In this document: positions 11,453-47,599 of the stretch, piece by piece
How the letters are laid out: each line of letters begins with the position of its first letter
Position numbering within the stretch: the stretch's first letter is position 1
Notes under the pieces: model-generated
What the model saw: the letters and a program-made list of their open reading frames with translations, nothing else
What the model was told of the DNA's origin: nothing
Databases searched by the model: none
Source of the DNA: a virus
Virus record (IMG/VR): IMGVR_UViG_3300035670_000022
Span: 64,001-128,000 of that record
Strand: one strand, 5' to 3'
DNA: 64,000 bases
Translations under genes and position numbers: made by a program

Positions 11453-14400
11453 TTACGAGAATTGGGTCTCCATCCAATCCAAAGCGATATCTGAAGTGTG
11501 GTAGGAGTCGACTAGCATGCTCCACATTTGCTCTGATGTAAGTTCGGAGTTAAATTCACAGTCTGTTGCAAAGTAGACTAAATCAGCTTTAGGAAAGCGA
11601 CTAGGTCCGACATACAAAGCAGCTTTATGCTGAGCCGGAATAGCTGTTACTTTACCTTTGCTGACGTAATACATATGCAGAACTCCCGGGCGGTTTATAG
11701 TCAAACCCTGGCTTTTCATTAGAGTCATAGCAAAACAAGGGTGCGCCGGGATTTGTCGGAAGGTTCCTATGGGACGACCCGACTTATCTTTAGGCCCTTC
11801 AAAGTCTGCATAGTCTAGAGTGATGACTTGCTTAGTAGTGTCTAGACGCACGTTGATAGAGTTTTTACCTAGTTTGGTAACTACTCCTGTGCTTCCATTA
11901 GCTGCAATAAGTGCACCGCCTCCGTTCTGTATGTTCTTACGAATCATTACAGGCATATCGACGCAGAAAGTCATCTCTTCTTCAATTGGATTAAAGATAG
12001 TGACAAACTCTTGCTTCTCGCCGTCGTAGGCTTTCTTCAGATACCAGTCTCCGAATTTACCTGTGACGTGGGCGCGATACGACTTGTTGTCTGCACCGTT
12101 AGCGATCATCTCAGCGGTCTTGCGGCTATTGTGCCGTTTTACTCCGATATTGTTGAAGTAGATGTGGATAGCATCTTCCGGAGCTTTGGTGGTAACACTA
12201 GCATCAAAGCGGTCTTTGATTAAGTTACCTTTCACGCCGGTTAATTGCAGCCGGTCCATACGTAACAGGTTAAGACAATCTACCCAGGCTTTATCTCCGT
12301 CGGCACGGATATTGTGCTTCAGGTTTATCATGACGAAGTCTCGGCGCTTAACAAAACTGCCGTAGCTGACATTGTTCTTTGCCCCTTTGATGAACACAGG
12401 TTCAAAGAAGAGGGAGCCTTTAACAGGTAAGAACTGCATTGGATCCCCTACTAACAGCCATTGAATGTTGATACCTTCTTCTATCGCAGCATCTTCGATG
12501 ATGTTTAAGAAGCGGTTGTCTACCATGCTGACTTCATCAACGATGACCATGAGTGGGCGTTTACCCAGGTAGTTCTTGGCGCTCTTGAAGAAGCGACTGT
12601 CTTTAACGTCTGACTTGAGTAGGTGGTACTCTTCGTACTCGCTACACTTTTTGCTCTCTGTTTTTTCGAATCCCAATTTGAGACCGAACATTGAGTTAAT
12701 TGTGCCGTCCCCACCGACGTTCATCACTGAAGTACCTGTAGAGCCAACAATGACGTAGGGGAGTTTGAGTAAGTCAAAGATGTGACGCGCTACTTCGACA
12801 CTGTAAGACTTGCCGCCTCCGCCTACACCGGTCAGCATAATATTGCTGCCATTAATAGCTTCAGCTACGACGTCTAACTGTCGAGCAGTCATGGTTTCTA
12901 GAGCGGGTAGGTAAGACTCCTCGTCTATAGTCGCATTGACGTTGGTGATTGCGTCGATAGCGGCTTGTAGAGCCTCGGGCTTACGTTTACGGTCTGCTTC
13001 TATCTCCATTTGGACTTTGGTCTCCTCTTGCTTAGCTTTTTTCTGTGCGTGTTTGCGTACCTTTTTAAGTGAGGGTACGATCTTTTTGCCTTTGCTGTTG
13101 ACAACAGGCTTAACAGATCCTACCTCTACTGTTTTAGGTTCTACAGATTTCTGTTTTTCCGCAACAGGGGTGGGAGTCTCTACTTTAAGAGACACTGCTT
13201 TAGAAAGAGGGATGTCTTCTGGTTCATCCTCGGGGGCATACATCTCAAAATCAGAAGATGTATCTTCGTCCTCGATTTGATCTTCAGACTCTTCAGGCGC
13301 TGTTAATACGTCAGACGCGTCTTCTGTGGTCATAGGTTTATCTTCGACCACTTTTACCGATGACAAAGAGACAAAATTAGAGATAGGGATCTCGTCATCC
13401 ATCTCGTAGTCATCATCAAAGTATACGCCTGTAGACTGATCTTCTTCTGTTTCGGGAACAGCAGCGTCAAAGCTGTCGTCTTGAGTACTTGTACTTTTCT
13501 CTGTTTCTACTAGAACCACAGGAATAGACTTGTATAAGTCGGTGATCTTTGTATGTAGAGTCTCAGGCATATCAGGCACTGTCTCAAGAATCATTAGCAA
13601 CATAGCAGCAACTTGGTTACCAGGATCAGGAGTCGACATAGGCTCTGCTTTGATAGCGGCAGAAGTGGGTTCAATCACTTCCGGCTGGTTGGGAGTAGTT
13701 GTTACCTCAACAGCAGGTTGCTCGTCAGCTGCTTCATCAAGTTCTATTAGAGCAGCTAACAAGTCTTCCTTCTTGCCGTTTAACTTAGGAACGGTATGCC
13801 CCGCGTCACGGTACTCTTTTAGCGCCTCTTTGATATCAGAGTAAGACAGAGAGGAGTACACGTCAGAAACAGAAGAGTCAACATCAGCTTCGACTTCAGC
13901 TTCGACTTCAGCTTCGACTTCAGCTTCATCTACTGGTTTAAGAGCAGGGTGATTAGTGTCGACCATCCAGTTGAGCATCTCAATGATGAGATCGCCGTGG
14001 CAAGGCAAAGGTGCGCAGAAGCAGACTAAGTCTTTTTGCTCTGCGTAGAGGCGGGCTAACTCATTCAGCACAACGCTGTCATTAGCATCTACCTTCTCTT
14101 GTAGCCAAACACGGTACAGTTCATAACACTCTTTCCGTGTGCCGTGTTTTCCAACGACAGCCTTGTTTGCTAGAACGCTACCTTTCTTGCCTTTACCAGG
14201 ACGTCCTATATACTCACCAAATACGCTGTCACCGTTTTTGATGTTTAAGACTTTCATAGTGCAGTGTCCTTCAGAAGATGTAGGAGGCTCAGAGTCTGAT
14301 TTAGGTTTAACCATACGTACAGTGACGTTATAGCGGACACCTTCACCACCTTCGTTGCCTTCATAGCCGTGGCGGGCGTAGCGTTTGTTGCCATAGAAGA

Positions 14401-17400
14401 CAATCAAATCACCATCGCCTACCTCGTATTTCTCTCCGTCTATTTGGAAGATACCGCTCTGGCCGAAGCTGAAAGACACAATAGGAGCATCTACTTCTTC
14501 GTCTTTATCGACGTGAAGGTTCAGCTTCTGTGCGCCTGCATATCGATTAATTAGACAGGTTTGAGCCTCGTACCCATCAAAGATGTCCAGTTGGGCGACT
14601 ATCTTTTCAGCAGTCTCTTTTAGAATGTTAGGCATCTCAACCACAGGCGAACCAGACGGCTGAGTGTTAAGGTATCGACCTTTACCTTTATTCCATACCC
14701 AGAATTGCTGACCAGCACAGGTATAACTGTAGCTCTTGGCTGTAAAGCGCGTCTTCTCACCATCTTCAAAGGTCTCTTCAATGGCTGCTCGTAGCTCATC
14801 ATAGATTCCCTCGTCTTGGCAATAGGATTGCTGAATGTACAGCCCGTCTTCGGTGTATACCGTCAACTCTTCTTTGTCGGACTCGGTGCGAAGCGCGTCT
14901 CGAACTTTCATAAGAAGGACGCCTTGCATGTTCTTACCTTGACGTTTCTTATTCACGCCCCAGAACGTGTCCCAGGGAGAGAGGTGTACAAGGTCGATAT
15001 CTTCTGTTTCTAACAGTTGAGTACGAGCAGGCTCATGGCTGAATTTGCCAAGCAGGACCTCGTACATTACATCGACTTTTACTTGTTCCCAGTCTTTTCG
15101 TAGCCTTACTTTTGCACCTTTAGCCTTTGCCTGTTTACCGTTCATAGCCGCGAACTCTTTAATAAGAGCGTGGCTCGGGTTGAGCACTTTGGCACACTGA
15201 TAGGCTCCCTCTGCTGTTGCATACTCTACGCCTTTGTATGTACAGGGTGCCCCCAGGAAGTTACTAAACTCTTTATACGTAGGCGTATAGGAGTTAAATA
15301 AGATGCAGTCGCCTTCCCAAGTGTCTTTATCTGCCGGATGCTCTTGTTGGGCTTCTACTTCCTGTTGTGCTTTAAGCATAGCCACGTTGATCACAGTGGT
15401 GTTCTTAACACGTTTGATGTTCTTCTTGCTACCAGGAGAAACGCCGTCCCAGATGACGAGACTCTCATCACAGTTACGATGCATCTTTTCATCCCGAGCA
15501 GTGAAGTCACCGTAGACAGCATAGGTTTCAAAGTCACCTACATTGTTGCGGCATCCTTTGCGGGAAGAGTACCAAACGCGCACGTTGGTGACACCTTGCT
15601 CAAAGAGATAGCTTTGTACAAGCATGTCTACACCAGCAGCATCACCAACGTTGAAGTTAAAGCCCTGATCGATATAGCTGTCGATCACATCTAAGGCTTC
15701 TTCAGGTAGACGTTTGATAGAACGGCTGCCAGAGATCACCACTTGGGTGTGATTTACCTCTAACTCTTCCGTAGACGTATCCTCTTCAGTGTCAGAAGAG
15801 TCAACAGATTCACCGCCGTCTCCATCGTCGTTAGGCTCATCGTCGGTCGGCTCTACACCGCCGTCAGAGTCATCTTCATCAGAGTCGTCTTCTTCTTCTT
15901 CGGTAATACCATCGTTAAAGTTATGGATCACAGAGAAGAAGTTGTCTTTACTCTCTTCGACAGAGTGGATCTCTTTCAAGAAGAAGTTTAGGTCGGCATC
16001 AGACCACTCGAGAGTGCTGATTTGAGTGTAGTCGTACATCTCTTTACCGAGAACTTCGTCTAGCTGAGAGAGAGACATTAGCGGAACGTTGGTTTGAAGC
16101 ACTTTAGCCCCTGTGGGGTGAGACTTAAGTGCGTTTAGCCACGCTATACTTTCTTGATAGATGACAGTATCCCCAAAGTAGAAGTTACCGCGGCCACCTT
16201 GGAAGATCGTATAAAGCAAGTAGGAAATCCCGTAGGTGGGGGTCTCTTTACCTCGCTTAACTACGTAATAGTCTTGCAGGAGGTGCATAGCAATTGTTAC
16301 CTCTTCCGCTAATTCGCAGTTAGCGCCGAGTTCAGCCAACGTTTCTTCTACTTTGTCCTCTAGGGCACGCTCTAAACGCATTTCTCCCAGCAGGGTTTCT
16401 AGAACTGTGCAGTTAGCAACAGCAACCTCATCGGTAACATTGCATTCTCGCAGGTTCAGAACCATGAGGTCGATCGTCTTGGTGCGAGGCATATCCAGAC
16501 GGGTGCTACGTAGACGATCATAGGCTTCTGCTACATCAAAGCGAATAAACTCGTCATCCCAGTTGGATAGGATTCCATGTAGCTCTTGAGTAACTTCAGC
16601 ATTGGCAAAGTCTTTAATCTTAACGGACTGTTTGCTGCAGCCGTCGTAGATAGATTTACCAAACATGATCGGCTTTAAGAATCGTTCCCAGAGAGATACA
16701 CCGCCGGGGCTGAATCCGCCGAGCATAATCTCGTACACTTCTGCCAAGACCAGCATGAGTTTGTTGATCTGAGTTTGACGATACTTGTCTAGCTCTAAAG
16801 GCACGAATGCACTTAGACCTTCAACACCGTCTTCACCAAACAAGTCCAACTTATCTAACTCGCCGATGATGCTAACCGCAAGCATACCGAGCATGTATGC
16901 AGCGTACATAACACCAACACCGACGTGCTGAATGCTGTATGCCAGGAAGTTGTATTTGACTAGATCTGAGCTGTTGATCATAGCCTTCTCTGGCAGTGCT
17001 TCTGCTAACTTGTTGATAACTACAGATGCATCTTTGTAAGACTTGATGGTGTAGTGGTCAGCAGCGTAATCCCCGCATGTGGGAGAGAACATGTCCATAC
17101 CTATAGCAGCGGAGCGCAGTTCACGAACCTTTTCATAGGTGGTGATGTGCTTAAGGCTCAGGTGCTTACAGTGAGTGATAAAGTGGTTATCACCATCATC
17201 GTCACCACCGTCTAGGTTGACAGACATAGCACTGACGCCGAATTGTACGGGGCTAATCTCGTACGCAAGAAGAGTATTGTCTTGAACCTCATCAGCAAAA
17301 GGTACACGTCGTTGTCCAAGATAGACCTCGACAGTTTCTTTACCGGTTTCGGTCTCGACTTCAACTTTCTCCCATACCTCTTCGATTAAACGAACCCGTT

Positions 17401-20400
17401 CAATCGGACCCATAGGCATAGGCGCACGGTTACCGCACGTAATTACACCTTCGGCTACAGACTGGCGGTCTAGAGGAATACCGCTACGTAGACACTCTTG
17501 ATATGGAGAGGAGACGACGTTGGTTTCTAGAATCCAGACTTCTCCTACAGGAATAGCAGGGTGACCGATACGCTTCGCACCGACTGCTTTATCGCCAGAG
17601 AAATACTTGCGGGAGTTCTTAGATGTAGCTAGAGAGTTAAGCACACCGCCGACCTGGTTAAGGGCGATCTGTTGCTTTTCGCTACCACCATTGATACACG
17701 GGATAAGTATTTCGAAGAAGAACATGGAGACGAAGTCCAAGTTATCATCGCTCTTGCGAGTCAGCTTAGAAAAAGCCAGCATGGCAGGGAGCCACATGGA
17801 CACTTTACCTTCTCCGGTTTCAAAGACGAAGACCATATCCTGAGTTGCTTCGGCAACCAGGCGGAAGAGGTTGTCTTGATGCGGATCAATCTGTCCAGGC
17901 TCAATACCGACTTTGCGTAGACGCTCATCCATAAGATCCTGACACTCGTTGCTGGTGTCATCTCCACCAAAGCAGATGCCTTCTTCATCAACGATGATGG
18001 ACACTACTTTGAGATTAGGATTAATGGTATTCCCAGCATTGAACGCGGCTAGCGCTTTAGCACGGTACAGCGCTTCTTTACCGCAGGACACCATACGACG
18101 CTGCTCAGCCAATACATCTTCGTCGTCCCCAGCTACAATGCTCAAGGACATGATATAAGGCAACAACTGAACGGAGGTCGTTACGGCTTCTGCTACCGTA
18201 GAAGACTCGAATAGCTCTACGTTGTAGAGTTGAGCTTCAGGTACGGAGAGGTACATTACGCCACGTTGTGCGACTTCTACCACTTTTCCGTCTTTAAGAA
18301 CAAAGGCGAGAATGTTGCTTTCCCACTCAATTTCTTTCTGCTCAGAGACTACGTAGAGGTTATCTCCTAAGTTGGCTAATTCAGGTAGGTACTCTAAATA
18401 GTTCTCTACGTGATACCACGCTGCCTTCCGTGCTTTTTCGTTCTCTTCGGTGTCAGGAAGTAATCCGGCGGCTACTTTCTCTTGGTAGAGGTCATACATA
18501 ACACGACCCATACCTTCAGCCTGTATCCAGTGAAGCCAGCGGGCTTGACCGAAGATGCTGTCGAAGTACTTATACATCTCATCATAGATACCAGCAGCAA
18601 CAGCAGCGGGCTCGATGATAAGCACGGGTTTGCCGTCGACCAGATTCTCGTGTCCTACCAACTGACGGTTGATGTCAGAGATATATTCACGAAGGGTCTT
18701 AACCACGTCTGTTTCTACTTCGTTGTAGAACGCAGTGTTGGCAATTATGAAGCACATCGCATAGCCCAAGTCGAGCTTAAGGCTATCTTGCAGGTGTAGT
18801 CCGTGTACAGTGATCTCGTCCGAGTTAAGGTCAGAGTTTAGATCATTGAACAAGATAGCAGGCGTAGCCGTAAAGAACTGCGACTTGTTAACACTACGAG
18901 ACTTCATATCAAACTCGCGGCGTTTGATGAAGTACTCGATGCTGAGATACTCAGTGCTGTTATCCATACCGACAACAACGCGCCAGCGGAAGTAGGTTAA
19001 CTGACCCTCTACACGGTGTTGATGGTAGATGGGAATCGTTCCGTGTACGCCGAAGAGGATCTCTTTACCTGTTCCGTTAACGAGCACCTCATCTTGCGGA
19101 GTGACATACATCCAGCCGTCTTCGCTCTCTACACTGTCCCAGGTGTTTTCGATCACACCGGTAACATTAGTTTGAGTAAAGTCGAACGGAGAACCGTCTA
19201 CTATATCAAACGTGTTACGGACAATTAGAATGCGTTGATCCGGGTTTGCTTCCGGTTTGTCTTTCTGTTCACCCAAGAACGCGGACATACCAGGCAGGTT
19301 AACGTGGCTCGGCGCATAGGCAGTCTTATCTAACCAGCCGTAGGTGGCATACTTCTGGTCGATAAGTTTAGCCGCAGAAGGCTGCTCGTCTTTGACGCTC
19401 TCAGCTTGAGCCATCCACAAAGACACCCGCTTCAGGAGTTTCTTCGCCTTCAACGAGTTGACGATTACTTTTCCTGCTTCGATTTCGCAGCCAAAGTTGC
19501 TGACGATCTTAGCGAACAGGTTCGGTGCATGCTTGCTGACCAAGTCTAGATTGACGTGACCCAAGGCACCAGCAACAAACTGTCCTTTGGTGTGGTGGAA
19601 GTCTAACCCATACTGCTCATGGGCCATTTCCATCACAATGTCCATCACTTCAGCAATTTCGATAGAGTCATCAAAGACAGCTGCAGTTTCGATCATTTGA
19701 AACTCTTCGTCTATGTCTGCCTCTACACCGCTGTAGCGTTCAGGTAGGACTTTAGCAGCCTTACCCTCTAGAGCAACCCACTTCCCATTACTGTTCAGCG
19801 GTGTGCGCTCTTTGAACATCACGGTGGAGAAGGTGTTGATGAGCAAGTGGTGTGCAGCACCGTTTTGGTCTAACACTCGGTCCGTAGTCATCTTAAAGAT
19901 GTTGCCCATCTTTTGCAGACATGACTTCACATTCTCTAATGTGGTAGAGAAAATGCCGGCGCTGCCAGACCAGTTAGAGAGGATAGGCAAGTACACGAGC
20001 CAGATGAAGTACATAAACATACTCAGGCTGGTGACTAACTTGATTTCTACCTCGTAGGGGCTGCCCTTAGGATCGGCTTTCTTCTCTTCTTTTGTCTTTT
20101 TACGTCCGTTGACAACAAGACAGCTATTGAAAGCACGACCACGCCAGTCATAGACAGTACCGTCGTCATCGAAGTAGAAAGCAGCAGCGCCGTCTATCTT
20201 AAGCGCTTTCATGCCATCTATCTCTACGAAGTCCAAGACTCCTTTGATATCGACAGCCTTACGGTTACGGCTCCGCTTTGTCTTCTTACCAGCGACTTCC
20301 ATCATGTCTTGAATGATGGTGATAACACCTTCAATCTCAGACAGTTGCCAGTCGTAGTCTAAGATTGGCATGTCGATGGTTGAGCAGGCATACTTGTCCC

Positions 20401-25561: not shown

Positions 25562-25809
25562 TTAATTAGAGGCCGGGGTAAAGAAGAGTCCGGATGTTCC
25601 TCGTAAAAAGGTGCCCCCTCTATATAGAGGGGGCACGGCTGTTATACCTAGGACTGAAGCAAGTCAGTCCTAGGGAACTCAGCCTACCTTTAAGAAGTGT
25701 TTGACCTGTTTCGAGAAACATTAAAGTTGATCACAGCCGTAGGTAAAGAATTGGTGGCTGTCCTCCTGTAAAAGGTGCCCCTATGCTTGTTAGGCACAGG
25801 GGCAATACT

Positions 25810-27183: not shown

Positions 27184-27414
27184 GATTACTTACGCCGGTT
27201 CAGATACAGCACCGGGAACTCTCCACTGATTTGACGTGTGTGTCGACACGACCTACTTAGATTTAGGTAGCTGAGCCATCTACCACCCTTTTACTCAGCC
27301 GGGCCTGGCCTATCCTCATACCCGTTGTTGGGTCGTAAAAAAAGCCCCTCTATATAGAGGGGCAGTCATATAGGTGCAGCTTATTTACCCTCCCCTGCAC
27401 TGGGAGACCAAGCA

Positions 27415-27537: not shown

Positions 27538-27640
27538 TTTCTAAAGCCGGTTGGTATAAAGAAGCAGCCTATGGCTGTGACCGGCATAAAAAAAGCCCCT
27601 ACACCTAGTGGTGTAGGGGCAAAGAGTGTACGAGTAGCTT

Positions 27641-28537: not shown

Positions 28538-28616
28538 TTGATATGCACTGTCACAGGGCATGGATTAGCTCGGCTGTGATGGCATAAAAAAGGCCCCCTA
28601 GAAGGGGGCTATATTT

Positions 28617-29018: not shown

Positions 29019-29224
29019 TAGGAACTCCGGGGTGTGAAAGGTAATTAGCCCCATAAAAGGGGGCCCCTACACTGATTAGGTGTAGGGGCCAAAGAGAAGA
29101 TGAAGTCTTGCGGATTTATTGCAAAAACGGGTTCTGCATATGGGCAAGACTGTTATATGACCCTCTTAAAAATCGCGGCATATTTTCATTTCCTATACGC
29201 CCATTAGTACAAAATGTAGTAATT

Positions 29225-29347: not shown

Positions 29348-29459
29348 TTAGCCAATTAACCAATACGTATACAGTCAAACAAAAAGCTCTTTCTAGGCGC
29401 CTAGAAAGAGCAGTAATCACCAAGCTATAATGACCGTGTAATTTATTCACCTTTGAAGT

Positions 29460-30251: not shown

Positions 30252-30275
30252 TATCTGTTTATTGATTGTTGGTTA

Positions 30276-30310
30276 GACTTTTACACATCTATGTGTAGAA
30301 GTCTTTTTTT
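30276..30310 (+). terminator. Intrinsic terminator after the AP2 gene
   Basis: AGACTTTTACACAT/ATGTGTAGAAGTCT stem followed by a T-run. Confidence 0.7.
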
Positions 30311-30392
30311 CTTTGTTTTGCGGCTGTACTCTTCTCTGTTTTTGTTCTGTGCCGTTGTAAGCTAGGTGTAGTATTCTTTCTTTTTTCCGACT

Positions 30393-31976: not shown

Positions 31977-32446
31977 GTTTACCTGTTGCTCAATTACACG
32001 ATCGAATTACTAATTGGAGACATTCAAGTCTTAACGCGTCAGGCTACTCACTTCCCGGATCTTTTGGCAGTGCTATTGCTGGTAGTTTAGGGGGTTTAGG
32101 GGGTGTTGTCAGTGCTGCTTCTGGTTTATTAGGTTCTGTTGCTCCTATTGCTTCTAGTGCTTTAGGGGCAGCCGGTAGTTTATTAGGATCTGGGTCTTCT
32201 AATAAAGACAAGCCGATTACGGGTTTAGGCATTATTATCTCTTGTCAGGCTGCTAACTTTTTGGTTAATGGTCGTCCTGTTGCGACGGTAGGAGATATAG
32301 GAGTTTCTACAGGGCAAGTCTTTTTAGTTACAGGTAGTCATTCTTTCTTTGTTAACGGTAAACCGCTGCATCGGGTTTTGGATGCGAATAGTAGCGGGGG
32401 TATAACTTTAGGACCTGGGGCTGCAAACTTTTTAGTAGGTAATTAG
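31973..32446 (+). CDS. PAAR-like spike tip protein
   Basis: PVAQLHD, NGRPVATVGD, TGSHSFFVNGKPLHRVLD repeats. Confidence 0.75.
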   Translation: MSLPVAQLHDRITNWRHSSLNASGYSLPGSFGSAIAGSLGGLGGVVSAASGLLGSVAPIASSALGAAGSLLGSGSSNKDKPITGLGIIISCQAANFLVNGRPVATVGDIGVSTGQVFLVTGSHSFFVNGKPLHRVLDANSSGGITLGPGAANFLVGN

Positions 32447-32449
32447 GAA

Positions 32450-35092: not shown

Positions 35093-35093
35093 C

Positions 35094-38600: not shown

Positions 38601-41600
38601 GAGGTGTTTAGTAAAGAACCAGCGACTTTGCTACTTACCTTACCTAAGTCTCCTAACGCTGCCAGTCTTTGACTCATTAAGGCGCTAAACTCAATTAACT
38701 TTTGGCTTTTCTCTTTGATTGATGCTTGGTTAAAAGACCGTAGCTCTGCGTCTGTTGAGTATTCGATAAAGTCTTTACCTACTTTATTGAGTGTCTCTGT
38801 ATATGCCTGCTGCAGTTTATCATCGGCGGCACCTTCTCTAAACGTGATTCCTATATCTTGATTTAAAGTGATATCGCTGACTGTTGCTAAAGCTCGTCCC
38901 AAAGATGATTGGACTTTATTTTGATTTCCATAGAAGTTAGCCTGCGTGTCTCTAGACTGTTTAATTAGAGACGGAATATCTTCATCAGTGATTGCGCCCA
39001 CTCCGTAGGAAAGTCCTTCCATAAACTCAGCAGGTAACGCCATAAAGTCAGTAATGTAGTTACGGACTTTTTCGACACCTCTGTTTTCTACTTCTTGTCG
39101 GAGTTCAGCTAAGACTTCTAACTTCTCTACATAGTCGTTGATTGTTTGTGTCAGTTTATTCAAAGATCGGGTTTGAGCGCCTACCGCAGACATTCTGATA
39201 ATGCTGTGTGGCGCATCTTGGTTTTCTTCTGAGGCATAGAATTCTGCCTCTGCTTTTTTGACTTTGTCGAAGGCGTCAACAACTTCTCTTGTTGAGTCAG
39301 CCATTTTTGTAAAGGCTGCTTGGAAACTATCCCCGTCATAGTCCCCTAACTGGGTGAACTGGAATCCTAAGGACGAGATGAACATTCCAGTGTTTGATGT
39401 TGCTAGATCAGGACTTTGTAAACTGCCGAACAGCTTGGCACGTTTAGCCATCTCTTCAGGAGATATCTGTTGATGAGCGTTCCCAAAAGTATGGAAGGTA
39501 CCGCTAGGAGCCCCCTGTCTGTTAGCAGTTACCATGCTGCGGAATACCACCGATTCAAGTTGTTTATATCCGTCGTCTGTTGGCTCCCCTCCTATATCAG
39601 AGATCAGCGCTTCTTTTAGATCCTGCCCACGTACATAGCGACTTCTAGGCTCTTCTCTTGGTTTTGCTGCATTCTCACTTTCGACAGCTCCTGCTGCCTT
39701 TTTAGCGTTTGCTGCTTCTTCTGCTGCTTGAGCCGCCTGTTGCTCTTTTTGGAAAACAGGTTCTTTAACTCGTTCTAGTAAATCTTCATAGCTAAACGTT
39801 TTAGCATCTGGACCCTGAATCACATCCGACAGGTTTTGCAGAATATTTGCGGTTAGCTGCGCATATTTAATGGTGCTCTGTACAATTCGGTTTTGGCTGT
39901 TTGGGTCAAGTATCAAGTCGTTGACTAGTCGCTGACGATCTTCTCGAAGTCGGCTTATTTCTGCGGATGACTCTGGGTCTGTAGCTGCGCTCAACTCTGC
40001 TATGCGATTATCTATTCTGACTGTTTCAGAAGACACTGCTTTTTGATGACTGTCTATTAAACGATCAACAATCGTGTCCATCAGCGTTCTAAGCCCAGAG
40101 CCGCTATTCTCTTTGAGAAGTGTATCTATTCTTGAGCCTAACGCTACCTCTGACTGACCGACTAAGAAACTGTTCATCGCAATAAACGAAGATCCTGTCA
40201 GACTTAGACGATCTGCCATAGTTTGTCTAAAGGTGTCTTTGTTTTTGGACAGATGTAATGTTTGCTCTTTTGCTATCTCAGCGCTATTAACTAAGGTGTT
40301 ATACACGTCGAGCTGCTCAGCGGATAAGTTAACTTCACGTCTTTCCATAACAGCTTGAGCCATTTCTTCAAACAGACCCGTGTCGTTTGCTCTAGCTAAA
40401 CTGTCCGCTAAACCATATTGGGCTCTTAAAGCCTCATGGGTGTGTCCTGGAAATACTAAAGACATTCTCTCTAGAACGTCTAGTCCTAGCATCCAGCCTT
40501 CAATCTCAGTTTCAGGCATGATTTGCGCTTTGTATGTTCCTTCATCTGTTGGACTAGGCTGTATTTGCAGCACAGGAATCGTGACACTGTAGGTTTTGTC
40601 CACGGAGTCGATAATGGAACGTGCTCTAGACTGTTCCTCTGTTGTGCCTAGTCCTGCTTCTAAGAACTGTCTGGCATACTCTCTTAACTTTTGCTTTCCT
40701 TGAATATATTCTTTACCTGGGTCTATATCCGCAGACTGCTTAAGTTTGGTATCGACTTCATTTTTAATTAGGTTATACAGAAGTCTCTCTTGGATCTCCG
40801 GCGCATCTTTAATATATGCAGATACTCGCTCTTCGATGCTCGTTAGATTGTTGATAAGAGTAGAGGTTTCGGAAAGTGTTTGAGACGCGGTTAGTCCTGT
40901 TTGTGTCTTGAGGACTTCTTTGAATTTCTCTCTCAAAAGAAGCTGTACGAAAGCCGTACGCTTTGTATCTGCTGAGAGTCTTGTCAACTCTACTTCTGAC
41001 AAGGAGCCCGTTCCGTCTCCTAACACTAGAGCCATCTCAGTAAATCCTAAACTGGCTAGCTCTAATTGATCTTCAACCGGTAGGGAGCGGATGGTTCCTT
41101 TTTGCTCTTTAACAATTTTAGCTATATCCTCTTTTGTAGCGTTATCTGGAACGGCTATTTTTCTGGATTTAAGAATGGCGATCGCCCGCTTAGTTGTGTC
41201 AGGACTTAATTTGTCTGCCCAGTTTTCAATAGTTGCATCTGCTTCAGTAACCCCGGGGTCATTTTCAATGAGGGAGCTACTAAACATAGCTGCTTCCACC
41301 TCTTGTAGAGAACTCAGCTGACTTAGGGCTCTGTCTGTTATACCGCTTAGTAAATCCTCTACTTGCCCACCGACTATAGTCTCGGAGTTTTTGAGACGAC
41401 GTAAATAGTCTTTTGTAATAGCTCTGGCTCTTTCTGTTCGATCTAAGTTAGTTCTATCGCTAGAGACTCGTCTAGACCACTCCATTTGTTGAAGAGCAGA
41501 TTCATATCCTTCTGCATCGCTGCGGATAAACTGAAAGAAAACTTCTTCTGCCGGAGCGATATCTTTAGCTCGGCTGCTTACATATCTAGGAAAGACGTTG

Positions 41601-44600
41601 TCTCTAGATCGAGCAGTAAAGTCTCCGTAAGACTGGCTAAAGGACAGGCTGAAGACGTTTGTCTCTACCTCTTGCTTGATTGCACGCCGCATTCTGTTAC
41701 GTCTAGCTCTATCTCCGGCGGTTTGTGCATCGATTCCTGACTCAGATTCGTTTTCTAAGTCGGTGTAGTTTTTGTACCCCATTAAGATAGCGTTGGTTCT
41801 TCTGATGCTGTACATCTCGCTGACGTCTGATTGGTCTAGAGTTGTGCCTAGTCCTTCTTGCAGCATGCTGCCCAGAATAACCATGGTCTGTTGTAAAGAC
41901 CTCGCTTTTTCTTTATCATCTCCGCTGTATGTATATAGCTGAAGCTGCTTATCAGTTAGAGCATTTGCGTAATGTCCTTCTAGAGCAGTGGTATCTTCCA
42001 TACCTGTCGGCACGGTGATTTTGTTGATGGTCATGTCAAAAGGCAGAGCCATTCTTAATCCGAACTGCCCCAGACCTCGCATCATTGTCAGAGTATTTTG
42101 CAGCTCGTTTTGTAGTGTTTCTAGCTCTGACGCTTCGGTATCTGTTCTAGAAGACTTGTCTTGCAGCTTCCAGATTCTTTCTATAGAAGGCATTTCTATC
42201 CCTAAAGCTAGGGTTTGCTGACGCACAGCTTTTCTGTATACGTTTGCCTCTTTGCCGTACTCTTGGTCTCTATAGAGTAAAAGACTCTCTGCGTCTAGTC
42301 CTCCATAATTCATAAAGATCTCAGTCAAATTCTTTCTAATTCCAGGAGTATAGGCTTTACTCATAAACAGATCATTCTCAACGCCTGCGGCATTCATGAG
42401 CCCCTCTATCGACTTATCCTTAAAGTCAATCGCCGTGTCGCTCATGTAGGCGATCGACTGCTTTTTCATTTCTTCTAGGCTTGATATCTTTCTTTCATGG
42501 ACGGCTTTTTGCATGGGATTTAACTGTCCTTTTTCGTTTTCTATGCCGAGTATGATTTTGTTAAAGACCGTGCTTATCTCTCTGTCGACTTTTCTAGCCA
42601 CTTCTTCGTTCTTTAGATAGACCCCAAAGAAACCGTCTGTGTTGTACGCAATTTCTGTCACTGCTTTTCCTAACAAGCGGCGTTCCGGATTGATATCAGT
42701 TAATACGTCTTTTGCTGCATTTAGGAAGAAGGCCATTACGCTGGCTGATCGAGACTTGGTCTCGTCGTAGTAGTAACCTCCATCAGGCATCTGTTTCCCA
42801 TACTGGTCTCTAGTCGTTTTAAAGAGATTTTCTGTTTTTTGTGCCAACTTAGCTCTGGCTGCATCACCTTCTTTTCCTGCTTTTAAAGCGGCGCCTATGG
42901 TATCTATAAGTGCTTGCTCTGGTGTCTTGCCACTTTCAACTTCTCCTTCATCTACAAGACTCATTATCCCTTCGTATACAGCTATAGTAGGCGCGAAGTC
43001 TCTTTGCAGTTTATCGCTTTGGTTTTTCTGCGCCAGGTTTTTAGCTGATGCTGTTCCTTCTACTATCAGTTTTAGTGCTGATTGGGCTTGTCTTCTGTTG
43101 CTAATAGCGCCGCGCTCATAGGCCCCTTTAAGCAAAGCAGATATCTTATTCGTTTCTGTAGCACCACTTGTTGTGTCTCCTAGCATCATCAAGGATAATG
43201 CCTCTGCAATTTTGTATCCTGCTGTCTGTTGATCCGTATCTGTTATCATCTTCCAGGTGTTTGACTTTTCGCCTTCACGTAGAAAGCCTAATCCAGCCTT
43301 AAACACAAAGCCTTTCATCTGCCCCATAGTTATGGCTGCAAAAATCTCTTTGCCGGTAATCTCAGTTGGCAGATTTTCATAGCCGACTTCTGAGCCGTAT
43401 ACGGCTCCTATTTCAAGAAAGTAGTCTCTATTCGTTCCTTTAAACGGACCTTTAGCCTCTGCCGTCCGCTGGCCTGTTTTGAGATCCGCAATATTTACCA
43501 TCTCTAAGTTATAGGTCACCATGTTTGACCTTAAATCCTGCTCACTAGACGTTGGCGTCTTATACAGGTAACTGATGGCATTCATCTCTCTTCCGCTATA
43601 AGCCGGGGCTTTAACCCTAAAGGGTTGGATTCTAGACTTCTCTCCTAGACTTGTATAAGTATTAATACCATCTATGTAAAAGGCGTTCTCGCCGTCATTC
43701 AGGCTGCCTATTTTTTTAAGCCATCCATCTGTAGATGACTTCATTTGATAAACGCCTTTCTTGAGAACGAAGCCTCCTTCTCTAAAATCTACAGCTTCTG
43801 CAAAGGAAACGGATTTATGCCCCTCTTGACTAAGTCGACGCATCTCTTTAAGCGCCTTCTTGATATCTGCCGATTTGAGATTCTCCATTGAGAAGTCTTT
43901 ATCGATGCTGTATTGCATCTCACCTATATCACTCGTGAGTTTTATGAAAGTCAGCACCTTATTTTCTAGTTGTCTATTTGTCTCGCTAAGGTGAGGCGCG
44001 TCTTGTAGTTTTACGTCTCTAGCTACAAAGATAGTTCCCACTTGTAATTTTTCCCGTATGAGCGCATTAAACTGCGCCGGGGTCATATTCATCTCTTTAG
44101 TAGATAAAGCTGTTTGAGACCGGTAGGTTTTTAAATAGGCATTTTCATTCGAGTTTGCATACTCGGTGTTGAGATAGCTGTAATCAGACATCTCGTTGAT
44201 GCCCATATTGACCATTACAAGTTTGGGAGCCTCTATGAAACCCTGAGTCACTTCATCTGTATCTATGGCGATACTACGGGCATACTTGACTATGTCCGCG
44301 TCTGGATTCTCCATTTGGTATTTTTTCAACAGCTCAAATTGAGCCGAAGGCAGACCGAAGGGTATTACCCCTCCTACAAGATCCGAGCCTTCTATATCTA
44401 TACCCGCCTTAGCCGCTTCTTGGGTCTTCTGCATAAATCCACTTTCATCTTCAGCCCCAAAAGAGCGTAAGAAAGAGGCAAAGTCTAGGTTTGCAGGTAG
44501 AAACGGTCTGACTGACTTTAAGTTTTTAAGTCGTTGTATGTTTTGCTCAGTTTTGTCATAGGGGGTGTAAAGCATAACTGCCTTTTGTTTAACCCGATCC

Positions 44601-47599
44601 CAAGAGCCTTCTTCGATTTCTTCTTGTTTACGCTTTTCTAGAGCAAACACAGTGTCGAGAAGTTGTTGCCCATAGTCACTACTTGAGTCTATTCCCATTG
44701 CATCTAGGCGGCGCGAGTAGTCTGCGTAGGTAAACATAGATAATCCCTGAATGGAGTTAAACAGCTGCATGGAATACGGAGTAGACACGCCGCCTTTGAC
44801 TTGAACTAAGCCACCTAGCATTTCGTCTGGGTTTAGAGTTGTCGGGCGGGCACTCTCCGAGGCACCGCGCAGTAAAGGTAATCCATCTTTGTCCGTTAGA
44901 TACTCTGTGTGTTCTACGGGCATCTCGCTTAGCAAGAAGCCTCTTGTGTAAATAAAGTCATCCTTCTCGCTGAAGTGAATATCTTCTACTTCTGGGGTTA
45001 ACCCGTATAACGGGCGCTTCCATGCAAGTTGTCCTTGGCTGTAACTTAACTCATGGGATTGCGGATAGATCTCAATCAATCTGGTATACAGCTCACTCTT
45101 GCGCTGCTGCATTGTTCTCTTGAAGAAGCTACTTGCTACTGCATTAAACGAGATGACGTTTCCTACTTCTTGACTGCGTTTTGTTATGGCTCCTACGTTT
45201 TTACTTAGCACTAGCTCTTTGTATGTGCTTAACTTTTGTTGGGACTCAGCTTCGGTAAATCCAGCGGATCTTAGTGCTAACAATGTTGCGCTGTCGCCTT
45301 GCTCTAATAACTTCTTCAGAGAATGCAGCATTATTCTCGTATTTTCTTCATACGCCATGCCCTGATTCATTGTGTAGACAATGCCGCCAAGTACCTGCAG
45401 AGCGTCTAGAGATACACTTTCTCCTGACTGTATGACTTTAGGGCCGCTGCTGCGATTATACGTATCGAACATGGCTGATTCGACTGCAACTGTCCTTGTG
45501 GATTTGTTCAACCACTCCATACCAGTAATGACGCGGTTACCTTTGTTGATATAAACTACGGGCACTTCATTAACGACTTGCTGTCCCGTCATCGGGTCAT
45601 ATCTCGACTCTTGCGTGCTGCCTATGGTCACACTAAACCGGAATACGTTTTTCAGGACGATGTCTAACCCGGTTGCTTCTCCTTGCATGTTGTATCGTTT
45701 GGAGAATCTAAATGGGTGTGATCTATCTTGTTGTCTACTTTCTTTACCCCCCAAAGCGGTGAGCATCTCTACGGCTGCTGAGACCTGTTTACTGTCTCCT
45801 TTACTTTCTACATAGAGTCCCCTGTTTGACATCTTTGACATCAAACCACTTCGGTAGTAACTCAGCGTCTCTTCGTTGTTGAGATTTAGGTCTTGGATAT
45901 CTCGTTCACCTAGGAAGATACCTGCTTCAATGTTTCTTGCATAGGAAGTAAACGATAGGTTAGCAGACGAGACTTCTAGCATCTCCAGTTTGTCTAACTC
46001 TTTACTCAGGACCGCAAAGCCTTTAGAGTGTCTGAGTTGTGTTGGAGCAATGGAGGCAGAGCTGCTTATAATTTCTTTGATTCTTGCTTTTGTCTTACTT
46101 GAGTCTTCCTCTCCAAACAGATCAAATACTTGTTTGTCGTCGTTCAGTCGGTCGAAGATGGAATATATACCCTCCCCTTCGTTGCGGCTGTTCTGTGTTG
46201 TGACTAACGTTAAACGTCCTTGTTGACTCAGACTTTCTATAACCTTGAAGAAACTTTTTTTATAGGCTAGAAAAGCAGACGACCCTTCTTGGTCTGTTAC
46301 TCCGTGTTTAGCCCCGAATAGAGTCGACTCTAAATATTGTACGGATAGAATTACTTGAGACTCTGACGGTGACTTACTGAGTCTTCTCAGATGTCTTAAA
46401 CGTGTTTCGTGAACGTCTCTATTTAGTTTGACGAATTGACTTGTCTCTTCTAGAGTGCTTTCAATCAACGACTTTCTAAATGCCTGTTGAGTTAAGCGTC
46501 TAGCCCCAAGAGACGTTAAGTCTTTACCCGCAGTGCTAAACATTGCATCTGTGGCGGCGCCTATTTCTCTTAACACAGACAGCATCTTGTCTTTGGCTTC
46601 TTTATTGCTATCGGCAACCATGTCCATACTCAAGAAGAGAGCCTCTTCAAGAGAGTCTCGGTTACGCAGCGTATCCGTTCTGTTTTGGCTTCCTATGGTA
46701 CCGGCAACGATATTCTTATTATCGTCATAGTAGTAACCTAACTTGGCGTGGAAGGCAGGGGTTATTAATTGACCTTCATTTCTCAGAGTCACTTTATTGG
46801 CGTTAACATTGGTGCCTTCAAAAGCCGAGAGGCTAACTTCGTTACCTCCTAACACGCTTAGCATTCTTTTTGTAGCGTTTTGACTCTGTTCTTCTCTATC
46901 CTTAACGACTATCGGACGAACACCTTGGGTCAATATGTCTGTTTTGACCTCTGGCCCTCGACTCATTAATCCACCAATATAGGAAGATTCTTGAAGTTGA
47001 TAGACAGACTCTCTTAGGTTTAGTCCCTTGTGCTCTTCTTGAAAGGCGTTCCAGTCTCTGTCGATAGGTCTTTGAACCAGACCGCGTGGTGGTTTATAGA
47101 GAGTGATATCCGACTGTTCTTGATTTGATCCGATAATCGAACCTGTTTTACCTATGGTTCTGTTGTAGATACCTGTTCCAGTGACTCTTACTGAATTTCC
47201 ATACCGGCTATAAATACTCTGATTGATGACGGATAGTTGACTTTGCCTGGCAGACAGACTAGAACCACCCTGAGCGCCGTATACAGCGTCTGCTGCTTCT
47301 CCTATATATTGCTTAGCAGAATTGTAGGGTTGCAGCCCTCCTGATTCGAAAGAGTTGAACTGATCTCGGATTGGACTGTTATGGTCCATGTTCCAAGCGA
47401 TGTGACTTTGCATAGAGGCCTGCACGCCTCTTGCCCTACCCGGGTCTCCACCCTCATCGTCTTGGGTGATGTATTGATTTGCTTCTTCGTTTAAGTTCTC
47501 TAGGTCTTCACCGGCACTACTATCCTCGTCCTCTGCATTACCAGCAGAAGCCTCCAACTCTTGTTCTGGGTCGTTATAATTTGTGTCCTCTTCTCCCAC
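35630..47599 (-). CDS. 3989-aa putative virion protein: tandem PLD domains, double-psi-barrel RNA polymerase core and helical tape-measure-like C-terminus
   Basis: HAK...D...GSQN (aa 284) and HSK...SSAN (aa 524); NRQGAP (aa 2693); LGDYDGD (D at aa 2753); Ala/Gln/Glu-rich helical C-terminus with hydrophobic stretches; structural gene context. Confidence 0.65.
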   Translation of the reverse strand: MGEEDTNYNDPEQELEASAGNAEDEDSSAGEDLENLNEEANQYITQDDEGGDPGRARGVQASMQSHIAWNMDHNSPIRDQFNSFESGGLQPYNSAKQYIGEAADAVYGAQGGSSLSARQSQLSVINQSIYSRYGNSVRVTGTGIYNRTIGKTGSIIGSNQEQSDITLYKPPRGLVQRPIDRDWNAFQEEHKGLNLRESVYQLQESSYIGGLMSRGPEVKTDILTQGVRPIVVKDREEQSQNATKRMLSVLGGNEVSLSAFEGTNVNANKVTLRNEGQLITPAFHAKLGYYYDDNKNIVAGTIGSQNRTDTLRNRDSLEEALFLSMDMVADSNKEAKDKMLSVLREIGAATDAMFSTAGKDLTSLGARRLTQQAFRKSLIESTLEETSQFVKLNRDVHETRLRHLRRLSKSPSESQVILSVQYLESTLFGAKHGVTDQEGSSAFLAYKKSFFKVIESLSQQGRLTLVTTQNSRNEGEGIYSIFDRLNDDKQVFDLFGEEDSSKTKARIKEIISSSASIAPTQLRHSKGFAVLSKELDKLEMLEVSSANLSFTSYARNIEAGIFLGERDIQDLNLNNEETLSYYRSGLMSKMSNRGLYVESKGDSKQVSAAVEMLTALGGKESRQQDRSHPFRFSKRYNMQGEATGLDIVLKNVFRFSVTIGSTQESRYDPMTGQQVVNEVPVVYINKGNRVITGMEWLNKSTRTVAVESAMFDTYNRSSGPKVIQSGESVSLDALQVLGGIVYTMNQGMAYEENTRIMLHSLKKLLEQGDSATLLALRSAGFTEAESQQKLSTYKELVLSKNVGAITKRSQEVGNVISFNAVASSFFKRTMQQRKSELYTRLIEIYPQSHELSYSQGQLAWKRPLYGLTPEVEDIHFSEKDDFIYTRGFLLSEMPVEHTEYLTDKDGLPLLRGASESARPTTLNPDEMLGGLVQVKGGVSTPYSMQLFNSIQGLSMFTYADYSRRLDAMGIDSSSDYGQQLLDTVFALEKRKQEEIEEGSWDRVKQKAVMLYTPYDKTEQNIQRLKNLKSVRPFLPANLDFASFLRSFGAEDESGFMQKTQEAAKAGIDIEGSDLVGGVIPFGLPSAQFELLKKYQMENPDADIVKYARSIAIDTDEVTQGFIEAPKLVMVNMGINEMSDYSYLNTEYANSNENAYLKTYRSQTALSTKEMNMTPAQFNALIREKLQVGTIFVARDVKLQDAPHLSETNRQLENKVLTFIKLTSDIGEMQYSIDKDFSMENLKSADIKKALKEMRRLSQEGHKSVSFAEAVDFREGGFVLKKGVYQMKSSTDGWLKKIGSLNDGENAFYIDGINTYTSLGEKSRIQPFRVKAPAYSGREMNAISYLYKTPTSSEQDLRSNMVTYNLEMVNIADLKTGQRTAEAKGPFKGTNRDYFLEIGAVYGSEVGYENLPTEITGKEIFAAITMGQMKGFVFKAGLGFLREGEKSNTWKMITDTDQQTAGYKIAEALSLMMLGDTTSGATETNKISALLKGAYERGAISNRRQAQSALKLIVEGTASAKNLAQKNQSDKLQRDFAPTIAVYEGIMSLVDEGEVESGKTPEQALIDTIGAALKAGKEGDAARAKLAQKTENLFKTTRDQYGKQMPDGGYYYDETKSRSASVMAFFLNAAKDVLTDINPERRLLGKAVTEIAYNTDGFFGVYLKNEEVARKVDREISTVFNKIILGIENEKGQLNPMQKAVHERKISSLEEMKKQSIAYMSDTAIDFKDKSIEGLMNAAGVENDLFMSKAYTPGIRKNLTEIFMNYGGLDAESLLLYRDQEYGKEANVYRKAVRQQTLALGIEMPSIERIWKLQDKSSRTDTEASELETLQNELQNTLTMMRGLGQFGLRMALPFDMTINKITVPTGMEDTTALEGHYANALTDKQLQLYTYSGDDKEKARSLQQTMVILGSMLQEGLGTTLDQSDVSEMYSIRRTNAILMGYKNYTDLENESESGIDAQTAGDRARRNRMRRAIKQEVETNVFSLSFSQSYGDFTARSRDNVFPRYVSSRAKDIAPAEEVFFQFIRSDAEGYESALQQMEWSRRVSSDRTNLDRTERARAITKDYLRRLKNSETIVGGQVEDLLSGITDRALSQLSSLQEVEAAMFSSSLIENDPGVTEADATIENWADKLSPDTTKRAIAILKSRKIAVPDNATKEDIAKIVKEQKGTIRSLPVEDQLELASLGFTEMALVLGDGTGSLSEVELTRLSADTKRTAFVQLLLREKFKEVLKTQTGLTASQTLSETSTLINNLTSIEERVSAYIKDAPEIQERLLYNLIKNEVDTKLKQSADIDPGKEYIQGKQKLREYARQFLEAGLGTTEEQSRARSIIDSVDKTYSVTIPVLQIQPSPTDEGTYKAQIMPETEIEGWMLGLDVLERMSLVFPGHTHEALRAQYGLADSLARANDTGLFEEMAQAVMERREVNLSAEQLDVYNTLVNSAEIAKEQTLHLSKNKDTFRQTMADRLSLTGSSFIAMNSFLVGQSEVALGSRIDTLLKENSGSGLRTLMDTIVDRLIDSHQKAVSSETVRIDNRIAELSAATDPESSAEISRLREDRQRLVNDLILDPNSQNRIVQSTIKYAQLTANILQNLSDVIQGPDAKTFSYEDLLERVKEPVFQKEQQAAQAAEEAANAKKAAGAVESENAAKPREEPRSRYVRGQDLKEALISDIGGEPTDDGYKQLESVVFRSMVTANRQGAPSGTFHTFGNAHQQISPEEMAKRAKLFGSLQSPDLATSNTGMFISSLGFQFTQLGDYDGDSFQAAFTKMADSTREVVDAFDKVKKAEAEFYASEENQDAPHSIIRMSAVGAQTRSLNKLTQTINDYVEKLEVLAELRQEVENRGVEKVRNYITDFMALPAEFMEGLSYGVGAITDEDIPSLIKQSRDTQANFYGNQNKVQSSLGRALATVSDITLNQDIGITFREGAADDKLQQAYTETLNKVGKDFIEYSTDAELRSFNQASIKEKSQKLIEFSALMSQRLAALGDLGKVSSKVAGSLLNTSAFANIQAIVGSTGTGLLGKTYNTVVPLLGMAVSDLASMRAMKEAADGTDDKMGTAFVEALQRQQLVLRQRLQNAETAKEQTAAQTQLDIFNDLLQKYQDKQTVPYKIAEAETQKRLNATFGLLLDVQQFLRDAALKPKKGGSVALEAAEFEYTYETQSGERKTLVGLDTIMNTVDEVERSKVMERFIGTRAGAVLAQDYGFEFKEDGKVVVSDNKLDTSELRVFAALEMVNEYLSGKKTATEMLKESTFAGFFRQRKEQMIEQDPDRPIPTDEFIVQTTLADSLAKFRSEFIYNAVLEAADYKPMLQKFAERLQDGYSEENLRTRTLAYEETLRGIYEQQMPDGASQLTKDVEADINSRTQSWRAEQERVRDVIAAAATRADSNANTTLGEEVFRSLIEYQTQREAQIYVGTDTEAGLFDQLISLNRAVQGLQSGQYATPGTAQQYEIAQTAILYNISRGKLEGTTFNESIFRLATEVQSVGGSAEAVGALLAVGGGTSLPGLMEFIQQQAQERAGGDTSRADELVRQSLVTLGEILTTQVETGATQRQSVAEIIAEKSVVSASSSKIQQELAALNDLELEARQRIQEGASDEEASETLDVIKRYREERQKRLESVQSNPQEAVNRLNEDFDPVAQALNDVQEQIGKNVAESIKAQHMQKKSQNITKVQEEAYQKQVRSNTLSLLAVPLLFSVMSGDVPITDRVAELARNMIESALTLSQQQGSVTQRILSGEGSGTVLAETLRPPNRQVENPVTISPDEPLTRDTVRTERQRRTAARTAQTIEPDVDEKPTQTSYLEKEQEDAERNTGRANYLLRVARAREFMFSAEGKPAGLAQSVAFEALNTAGAYASSQFAQNTRLLRDDSVLGRGALEVMGGVVGMALANVVTKRPITGTDFTYDAAFDLTVQAVSNVKDNVIAASRRALAEAINGEDIDITDGYTGESLEAILAEGDFMFDDDNTSLSAVERVMITEGMLEEEESLPIEQGED

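Follow-up and report, generated by a model that had tools for sequence, protein, structure and literature searches.

Single-chain two-barrel RNA polymerases are few, and they hold a central place in thinking about how transcription enzymes arose; to our knowledge only a handful have been studied, namely QDE-1, YonO, phi14:2 gp66, and gp64 and gp96 of phage P23-45. Our analysis concerns two giant genes in a stretch of viral DNA of 64,000 nucleotides (nt) (hereafter the window; bases 64001-128000 of the 155,913-base IMG/VR record IMGVR_UViG_3300035670_000022, estimated completeness 88%), which encode a protein of 4182 amino acids (aa), P0001, and one of 3989 aa, P0002. Judging from its gene content (portal, head, sheath, tail fibres, terminase and replication genes), the source is a contractile-tailed phage of ~156 kb, and it appears to be distantly related to the Microcystis phage Ma-LMM01. 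We propose, with some reserve for the pair as a whole, that it represents a lineage with two hitherto unrecognised giant GD-x-DGD proteins, of which P0001 would be a two-barrel polymerase and P0002 a probable second one. This adds one family with a confident structural model (at least 61 clusters at 50% identity, from metagenomes) and one probable family.

Thermus phage P23-45 possesses a non-virion RNA polymerase, gp64, and a virion RNA polymerase, gp96, the latter fused to the tape measure (PMC10770324). Enzymes of this type share the motif context [TG]-G-x-D-[FY]-DGD, and each of the two has its own DNA motif. Our locus would resemble P23-45 in providing two single-chain two-barrel polymerases per phage, one of them within a giant virion protein, for which P0002 is the candidate. 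In contrast, P23-45 is a siphovirus and the present phage a predicted myovirus; gp64 is a fusion-free protein of 616 aa whereas P0001 is a 4182-aa fusion; and gp96 carries its polymerase N-terminally, fused to the tape measure, whereas the motif of P0002 lies at aa 2753 of 3989 and its gene is found beside the portal gene. Comparison of the P23-45 enzymes with both of our families by hhalign aligns the Asp loop only (~1% probability). The pairing of a virion and a non-virion two-barrel enzyme is already known from P23-45.

Phage phi14:2, of the crAss-like group, encodes gp66, a giant protein of the virion module in which a two-barrel polymerase is hidden and which is ejected to transcribe the early genes, but its motif is DFDID instead of DxDGD, it has no detectable profile similarity to P0001 or P0002, and its lineage is that of a podovirus. 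The weaker matches in BFVD of the P0001 model described below include pieces of crAss-like phage proteins that are annotated as DNA helicase or uncharacterised. YonO of the Bacillus prophage SPbeta is a DNA-dependent RNA polymerase with two barrels in a single chain, and it uses promoters of its own to transcribe phage genes; it differs by its size (~800 aa), its freedom from fusions, its DNDGD motif and the lack of profile similarity. phiKZ and AR9 follow the same logic, packaging one enzyme for the early genes and using another for the later ones, and the non-virion subunits of AR9 and phiKZ are among the structural matches of the P0001 core (Z 7.3 and 6.2, respectively). However, the phiKZ and AR9 enzymes are multisubunit, with split beta and beta-prime homologs, whereas here each enzyme would be one chain.

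Fold and family of the P0001 core

The sequence-only reading had assigned to each of two ~4000-aa open reading frames (ORFs) an arginine- and proline-containing motif followed by a DxDGD motif, and both ORFs and all four motifs are found where it placed them (Table 1). NRAP and GGDDDGD are separated by 74 aa in P0001, NRQGAP and DYDGD by 60 aa in P0002. Estimated from residue frequencies, a D-x-D-G-D pentapeptide arises by chance ~0.05 times per 4000-aa protein; conservation of the motifs matters more than this estimate, and the Asp residues, checked in the homologs, are kept in both families. For P0001, a word-index search retrieved two full-length homologs, P0010 and P0011, and no shorter stand-alone homologs of the core. 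An exhaustive profile search with the core against 1.84 billion representatives retrieved 61 family proteins of 216-4532 aa (representatives at 50% clustering), 27 of them below E 1e-30, and all except a few short or incomplete ones carry GD-x-DGD. The columns of the Asp motif read G 57/57, D 57/57, D 56/57, G 57/57 and D 54/55, and R2192 and P2194 are each present in 57/57. Near-invariant positions are K1700, R1702, K1706, D1739, K1742, D1744, R2192, P2194, G2266, D2267, D2269, G2270 and D2271, together with Y2312, D2315, H2316, Y2423, E2424, L2427 and G2428. The basic K/R/K motif precedes R-x-P and the Asp triad by ~500 aa, and this is the barrel order of single-chain two-barrel polymerases, in which a beta-like barrel is N-terminal and a beta-prime-like barrel follows (PMC10770324).

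An AlphaFold2 model of P0001 aa 1560-2450 (891 residues), built from a 42-row alignment, has a mean predicted local distance difference test (pLDDT) score of 90.3 and a predicted template modelling score (pTM) of 0.88. Foldseek against the PDB returned weak E-values (best 2.3e-3), and the best 50 matches consist almost wholly of beta or beta-prime chains of RNA polymerases, of QDE-1, and of the RNA polymerases of AR9 and vaccinia. Re-alignment with VIA-align gave Z 12.5 for QDE-1 (336 residues aligned, root-mean-square deviation 6.3), 11.6 for maize RDR2, 9.7 for phage P32 gp64, 9.4 for P74 gp62 and 9.2 for Rpb1 of RNA polymerase II. A fold scan independent of Foldseek, covering 48,161 PDB representative chains, was likewise headed by QDE-1 (Z 12.1, with 331 aligned residues that span residues 1-890 of the model), followed by gp62 (Z 9.4); gp96 of P23-45 (Z 8.3) and cellular RNA polymerases are listed as well, and Z 8 is attained by just 11 chains. 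The nearest structures over both halves of the model (Z 12.1-12.5, ~330 residues) are QDE-1 and plant RDR2, the eukaryotic RNA-silencing polymerases of PF05183, which, as is predicted for the P0001 core, combine two barrels and a D-x-D-G-D loop in a single chain. Unlike them, P0001 is a phage protein and a 4182-aa repair/helicase fusion, its template is presumably double-stranded DNA, and it shows no significant sequence similarity to either.

Residues 579-734 of the model superpose on designed and Cdc48 N-domain double-psi barrels (Z 8.1-9.3), the designed barrel matching residues 579-719 at Z 8.1. The Asp loop (model residues 707-712) lies in this barrel between strands E694-698 and E713-718, and NRAP closes strand E628-633. 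In the model K1700/R1702/K1706 fall in a beta-rich segment. Alignments with QDE-1 689-1136, gp62 101-427 and gp96 497-1077 span residues 1-890, and those with beta-prime and Rpb1 reach residues 878-891, beyond a 43-residue helix (H785-827) C-terminal of the barrel, where a polymerase of this class would have its bridge helix and trigger loop. The double-psi barrel that the sequence-only reading expected around the motif was looked for by AlphaFold and fold search and is present in the model. Given this confident model, whose nearest structures are QDE-1, RDR2, gp64/gp62/gp96 and the cellular large subunits, the claim that the 4182-aa protein is a single-chain two-barrel RNA polymerase is borne out at the level of predicted fold, and for the core of P0001 we regard it as very probably correct.

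Several results weigh against reading either protein as a polymerase. By sequence, nothing but the motif ties the two families to known RNA polymerases: Pfam and PHROGs gave nothing for the polymerase regions of the two proteins, PHROGs nothing for that of the 27 P0001-family members, PDB sequence searches (single sequences and profiles) no polymerase match for P0001 or P0002, and among cultured phages blastn and tblastn recovered, for these regions, no more than a weak match to Ma-LMM01 gp080. Hhalign of both families against P23-45 gp64/gp96, phi14:2 gp66 and YonO reached at most 1.2% probability, PF00623 and PF05183 have no match in the phage's own genome, and the supplements of the P23-45 paper hold neither family's motifs nor Ma-LMM01 (PMC10770324). 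PF05183 (RdRP), which fails to recover even YonO in SPbeta at E <= 1, is the sole Pfam family matching more than one of the 27 P0001 relatives (2/27, E 0.013); it does not match P0001 itself, and the Pfam gathering threshold is not reached. On these searches neither P0001 nor P0002 appears to be a sequence member of a curated family, and with respect to PF05183 the model makes P0001 a structural neighbour, not a sequence member. In addition, Z 8-12 is moderate for an 891-residue model, and an ESM Atlas feature search points the P0001 core to DUF3638/helicase-like clusters (0.90). A DUF3638/helicase-like identity was rejected, as there is no helicase among the 50 best fold matches listed from the scan of 48,161 chains and no Walker motif in the region.

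A two-barrel core might also serve replication or repair instead of transcription, as a primer-making or PolD-like enzyme or as an RNA-dependent polymerase. Such a role would suit the DNA-repair and helicase modules to which the core is fused as well as its nearest structures, QDE-1 and RDR2, which copy RNA or single-stranded DNA, and PolD is also a two-barrel enzyme (PMC10770324). However, PolD is absent from the listed structural matches of the core, among which the phage transcriptases gp64/gp62 and gp96 are present, and the repeated strand-specific exact 14-mer ahead of genes (see below) calls for a sequence-specific polymerase. Moreover, replication would not need the core, since primase, two helicases and a DNA polymerase of family-A-like type with exonuclease are encoded separately by the phage. 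We therefore give a replication or repair enzyme little credence and retain a transcriptase as the function of P0001.

Upstream of aa 2800 of P0001, no domain was recognised by Pfam, PHROGs and PDB sequence searches; the C-terminal part carries the NADAR, AlkB-type, DUF4326 and helicase domains listed in Table 1. A single chain that joins polymerase, NADAR, AlkB and helicase would have an unusual architecture, and it hints at transcription coupled to the removal of defence-inflicted DNA or RNA damage. Between the core and NADAR, aa 2836-2883 (window 15353-15496) match phrog_11222 and by eye resemble a SLOG/YpsA-like nucleotide-binding domain. Other BFVD matches of the core model are a "minor tail protein" from an uncultured siphovirus (E 1.1e-5) and, at E 1.1e-5 and 8.5e-3, uncharacterised proteins of vB_AbaM_ME3, a jumbo phage of Acinetobacter. 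If these model matches hold, there may be more two-barrel polymerases that have escaped notice, one of which is perhaps fused to a tail protein, as in P23-45.

P0002 as a candidate second polymerase

P0002 has seven homologs (24-49% identity), conserved over the whole length, and R-Q-G-x-P and L-G-D-Y-D-G-D-S-x-Q-A-A are invariant in the eight proteins of the family; LGD-x-DGD is kept in 10 further IMG/VR loci and in Ma-LMM01 gp080 (LGDFDGD). The N-terminal region is characterised by two HKD half sites; PF13091 (PLD-like) is found in 4/6 family members (best E 4.9e-6), the P0002 N-terminus has a weak profile match to the PLD-type nuclease BfiI, and the HKD motifs are degenerate in gp080. Downstream of the PLD motifs there follows a long, mostly helical body carrying R-Q-G-x-P and GDYDGD. 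The family also conserves a basic motif at aa 1376-1385, a candidate beta-like barrel element, and likewise K1429.

The gene is assigned to the virion module because the portal gene adjoins it, and on its side there are also genes for a PAAR protein and for a phrog_1394 virion protein. In the contigs of two homologs, P0003 (50% identity to P0002 over the full length) and P0008 (24-26%), the series again runs from the portal gene through two small genes to the giant gene, a BW3TFN-like gene and, further on, the PAAR gene. A tape measure role for P0002 was rejected on the grounds of position, of length and of a 961-aa ORF downstream of the sheath and tube genes, which is the better tape-measure candidate.

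The sequence-only reading took the 3989-aa protein for a two-barrel polymerase as well. That claim agrees with its motifs, with the place of its gene among the structural genes and with its occurrence alongside the P0001 family, but the model failed and the profile comparison recovers the motif alone. A model of P0002 aa 2250-3400, built from 8 sequences, has pLDDT 53, with values below 50 around the motif, the motif region is predicted as helix or coil, and the only structural matches are coiled-coil hairpins. Between the P0001 and P0002 families, hhalign gave 53% and 16% probability over 22-26 columns, limited to the segment of strand and Asp loop. In BFVD the P0001 model finds part of the PLD-domain protein of Ma-LMM01 (E 2.8e-6, prob 0.95), namely the second of three fragments of 1187 residues each, whose total fits the 3562 aa of gp080. 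However, this match has a template modelling (TM) score of 0.16 and is not placed on the motifs, and is suggestive only.

Alternatively, P0001 alone might be a polymerase and P0002 a giant protein inside the virion or ejected from it, acting as a helical scaffold or as a conduit across the cell envelope and bearing a PLD nuclease or lipase head; the GDYDGD of P0002 would then be a metal site of another function such as calcium binding or another hydrolase. That the modelled part of P0002 is almost wholly helix, with a long helical hairpin right behind the motif, agrees with such a protein, as do the conserved PLD motifs, profile links of no more than 22-26 columns, and an ESM Atlas feature search that points to tape-measure proteins (0.84), a result set aside. 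Against it stands the single-copy motif itself, invariant across 19 proteins down to 21% identity with an invariant R-x-x-x-P at a fixed distance ahead, an arrangement that mirrors the Asp-carrying polymerase barrel. The family co-occurs with that of P0001, the 961-aa ORF is the more suitable tape measure, and giant virion proteins that hide two-barrel polymerases have precedents in phi14:2 gp66 and P23-45 gp96. A purely structural or nucleolytic P0002 seems to us rather doubtful, and the motif pattern tips the balance, by a modest margin of confidence, towards P0002 as a second, very divergent two-barrel RNA polymerase.

Pairing of the families and the Microcystis phages

Ten IMG/VR contigs carry a P0002-family gene, and a P0001-family gene is present in six of them, including all five that are at least 90% complete and one of 68%; the four contigs without it are fragments, 21-66% complete. 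P0003 and P0011, homologs of P0002 and P0001, respectively, come from the same sample.

No nucleotide-level relatives were found among cultured phages by blastn, and gp080 of Ma-LMM01 is the sole protein-level link of P0002 to them (tblastn; 21% identity, E 3e-4). In gp080, R-x-PPP...H is followed 60 aa on by LGDFDGD, and its gene lies between tail and head genes. For P0001 the counterpart would be Ma-LMM01 gp064 (1673 aa), which adjoins the early cluster gp054-063 and a repeat array; its alignment to the P0001-family model is weak and takes in R-x-P-M, GDADGD, Y-x-A-D and V-G-x-x-Y. The best BFVD match of the P0001 model is a gp064-like protein of MaMV-DC of matching size (E 1.1e-13, TM 0.40, 830 columns). 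Synteny, co-occurrence and the links to gp080 and gp064 suggest that the P0001/P0002-type pair is conserved within a lineage to which cultured Microcystis phages belong. Through Ma-LMM01 and MaMV-DC, which infect the toxic bloom former Microcystis, the two families extend to a model system in culture.

For the mechanism, we propose that P0002 is packaged, would enter the cell with the DNA and would transcribe the first genes, while its PLD module may cut host nucleic acid or aid passage across the cell envelope. P0001 would be made early as a non-virion transcriptase and, starting from AACAGAGAAGAGTA, would read the replication and metabolism genes of the minus strand; the helicase, NADAR and AlkB domains fused to it would handle modified or damaged template. 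Such a virion-then-non-virion cascade is a tentative scheme, in which we place less confidence than in the pair of polymerases itself. Papers on the Ma-LMM01 group state that there is no phage RNA polymerase and that transcription depends on host sigma-70 (PMC5780444, PMC9927357), and the Ma-LMM01 transcriptome has been explained by host sigma-70 alone for all classes (PMC5780444), which speaks against our proposal; mass spectrometry has been called still needed for this group (PMC9927357). The published view of sole reliance on host sigma-70 transcription would be overturned if the proposal were true. It is conceivable, and we suggest it with caution, that Ma-LMM01-like cyanomyoviruses and wider 150-220-kb myoviruses are transcriptionally autonomous by means of paired divergent two-barrel polymerases, a PLD-fused virion enzyme and a repair/counter-defence/helicase-fused enzyme with a 14-20-nt promoter.

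DNA signals and neighbouring genes

The sequence-only reading had matched the two proteins to two promoter classes, and one of the two signals stands: AACAGAGAAGAGTR has 18 matches at up to two mismatches in the window against 1.6 expected, and 0/100 shuffles reach 18. Genome-wide there are 24 sites of the 14-mer at up to one mismatch, of which 22 lie on the minus strand and 10 precede a start codon by 22-50 nt; the 14-mer contains the genome's most repeated 11-mer and extends to the consensus AAAACAGAGAAGAGTAAAAG (14-20 nt). As an exact purine-rich 14-mer, AACAGAGAAGAGTA stands 22-50 nt upstream of minus-strand non-structural gene starts, and it is a real strand-specific element ahead of genes.

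Its position so close to start codons and its purine-rich composition would also allow AACAGAGAAGAGTA to fall in the 5' untranslated region as a leader, processing or translation element, or host RNA polymerase could read it with a phage factor, given that host sigma-70 promoters were proposed for all classes in Ma-LMM01 (PMC5780444). However, exact repeats of 14-20 nt such as AAAACAGAGAAGAGTAAAAG typify the promoters of single-chain phage polymerases and not sigma-70 sites, and two copies lie in coding sequence (22096 in P0001 and genome 39924) and some far from any start, which speaks against a ribosome-binding role. We consider host-read or post-transcriptional functions unlikely on the whole and take AACAGAGAAGAGTA as the probable promoter of one of the two polymerases.

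One copy is located just past the P0001 stop codon. Two others are found inside P0001 in the sense direction (22096-22109 and 13492-13505; one exact, one with a single mismatch) and could be internal promoters for shorter products or downstream genes. A further copy in 30275-30340 on the minus strand is followed by a 13-bp hairpin and points antisense through the HNH gene to the repeat array and early-type block; read-through from it could feed P0001 too.

The other promoter class, the hairpin cassettes at 24-29 kb, finds no support: these are GC-rich stems of 7-11 base pairs followed by T-runs, found 23 times against 5.9 +/- 2.5 expected, and thus resemble intrinsic terminators. Judged from shape only, they would be terminators or attenuators between small early-type genes and not N4-like hairpin promoters. 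Sigma-70-like sites are scarce at 24-30 kb (2 against 6.5 expected). That this block corresponds to the Ma-LMM01 early genes is hinted at by the small gene 27959-28561, which weakly matches a PHROGs family annotated as kinase; the Ma-LMM01 early cluster holds an annotated kinase, gp062. A crude hairpin scan of the Ma-LMM01 early region found no hairpin-plus-T-run cassettes like those of the window.

Table 1. Features of the two giant genes and their surroundings, in window coordinates.
Feature	Position	Strand	Remarks
P0001	11453..24001	minus	uninterrupted ORF, 4182 aa; multidomain
P0001 conserved N-terminal region	within 11453..24001	minus	full-length homologs P0010, P0011
P0001 core, aa 1560-2450	16652..19324	minus	modelled two-barrel core; pLDDT 90.3, pTM 0.88
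K1700-x-R1702-xxx-K1706	18884..18904	minus	56/56 in family alignment; model strands E141-143, E146-153; candidate beta-like barrel
NRAP, P0001 aa 2191-2194	17420..17431	minus	R2192 and P2194 invariant; end of strand in Asp-carrying barrel of model
GGDDDGD, P0001 aa 2265-2271	17189..17209	minus	family consensus GD-[FY]-DGD; candidate metal-binding loop in double-psi barrel
NADAR, P0001 aa 2906-3038	14888..15286	minus	Pfam E 3e-24; PDB 2b3w
AlkB-type 2-oxoglutarate-Fe(II) dioxygenase, P0001 aa 3089-3229	14315..14737	minus	Pfam and PDB sequence searches
DUF4326, P0001 aa 3261-3341	13979..14221	minus	Pfam
Dda/Pif1-like superfamily 1B helicase, P0001 aa 3496-4138	11588..13516	minus	phrog_325 E 5.5e-39; PIF1 structures
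P0002	35630..47599	minus	uninterrupted ORF, 3989 aa; morphogenesis module
Two HKD half sites, P0002 aa 284-558 (H284-x-K286...N306; H524-S-K526...N547, E558)	45926..46750	minus	invariant in 8 homologs; PLD nuclease-like
G1376-x-R1378-xxxx-K1383-G-P, P0002 aa 1376-1385	43445..43474	minus	conserved basic motif; candidate beta-like barrel element
NRQGAP, P0002 aa 2693-2698	39506..39523	minus	R2694, Q, G and P2698 invariant
GDYDGD, P0002 aa 2752-2757	39329..39346	minus	invariant; candidate catalytic loop (DYDGD aa 2753-2757 = 39329-39343)
Portal gene	48983..50446	plus	phrog_113 E 5.8e-25; divergent neighbour of P0002
Major head protein gene	54435-55769		
Tail sheath gene	60221-63133		
AACAGAGAAGAGTR sites	11347-11360, 4717-4730, 5842-5855, 8739-8752, 9210-9223, 10301-10314, 22096-22109, 30327-30340, 52140-52153	all minus	candidate phage-specific promoter
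GC-rich hairpins then T-runs	29386-29411, 29062-29090, 28593-28609, 27595-27620, 27344-27363, 25611-25636	minus	between small minus-strand genes upstream of P0001; intrinsic-terminator-like

The window further contains a head protease gene, a PAAR-motif protein gene (31973-32446), an HNH endonuclease gene (29460-30251), a PhoH-like ATPase gene (422-1795) and a dUTPase gene (50861-51514). Tail fibres, large terminase, the replication proteins named above and ribonucleotide reductase are encoded outside it, and an integrase-like gene is located at genome 9295-10422. Window 29207-29357 holds about eight copies of ACCAACCAATCGACCA-like units with a spacing of 12-23 nt, immediately upstream, in minus-strand terms, of the block of small genes leading to P0001; they could be iterons, an origin or a binding array, and may be compared with the 42-bp repeat array beside the Ma-LMM01 early cluster. 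The palindrome TTCTGAACGGTTCAGAA, which could be an operator or a terminator, occurs ~6 times genome-wide (genome ~2264-2289, 16591-16609, 64411-64433, 70154-70176, 86610-86635 and 123270-123292), the last four corresponding to window ~411-433, ~6154-6176, ~22610-22635 and ~59270-59292.

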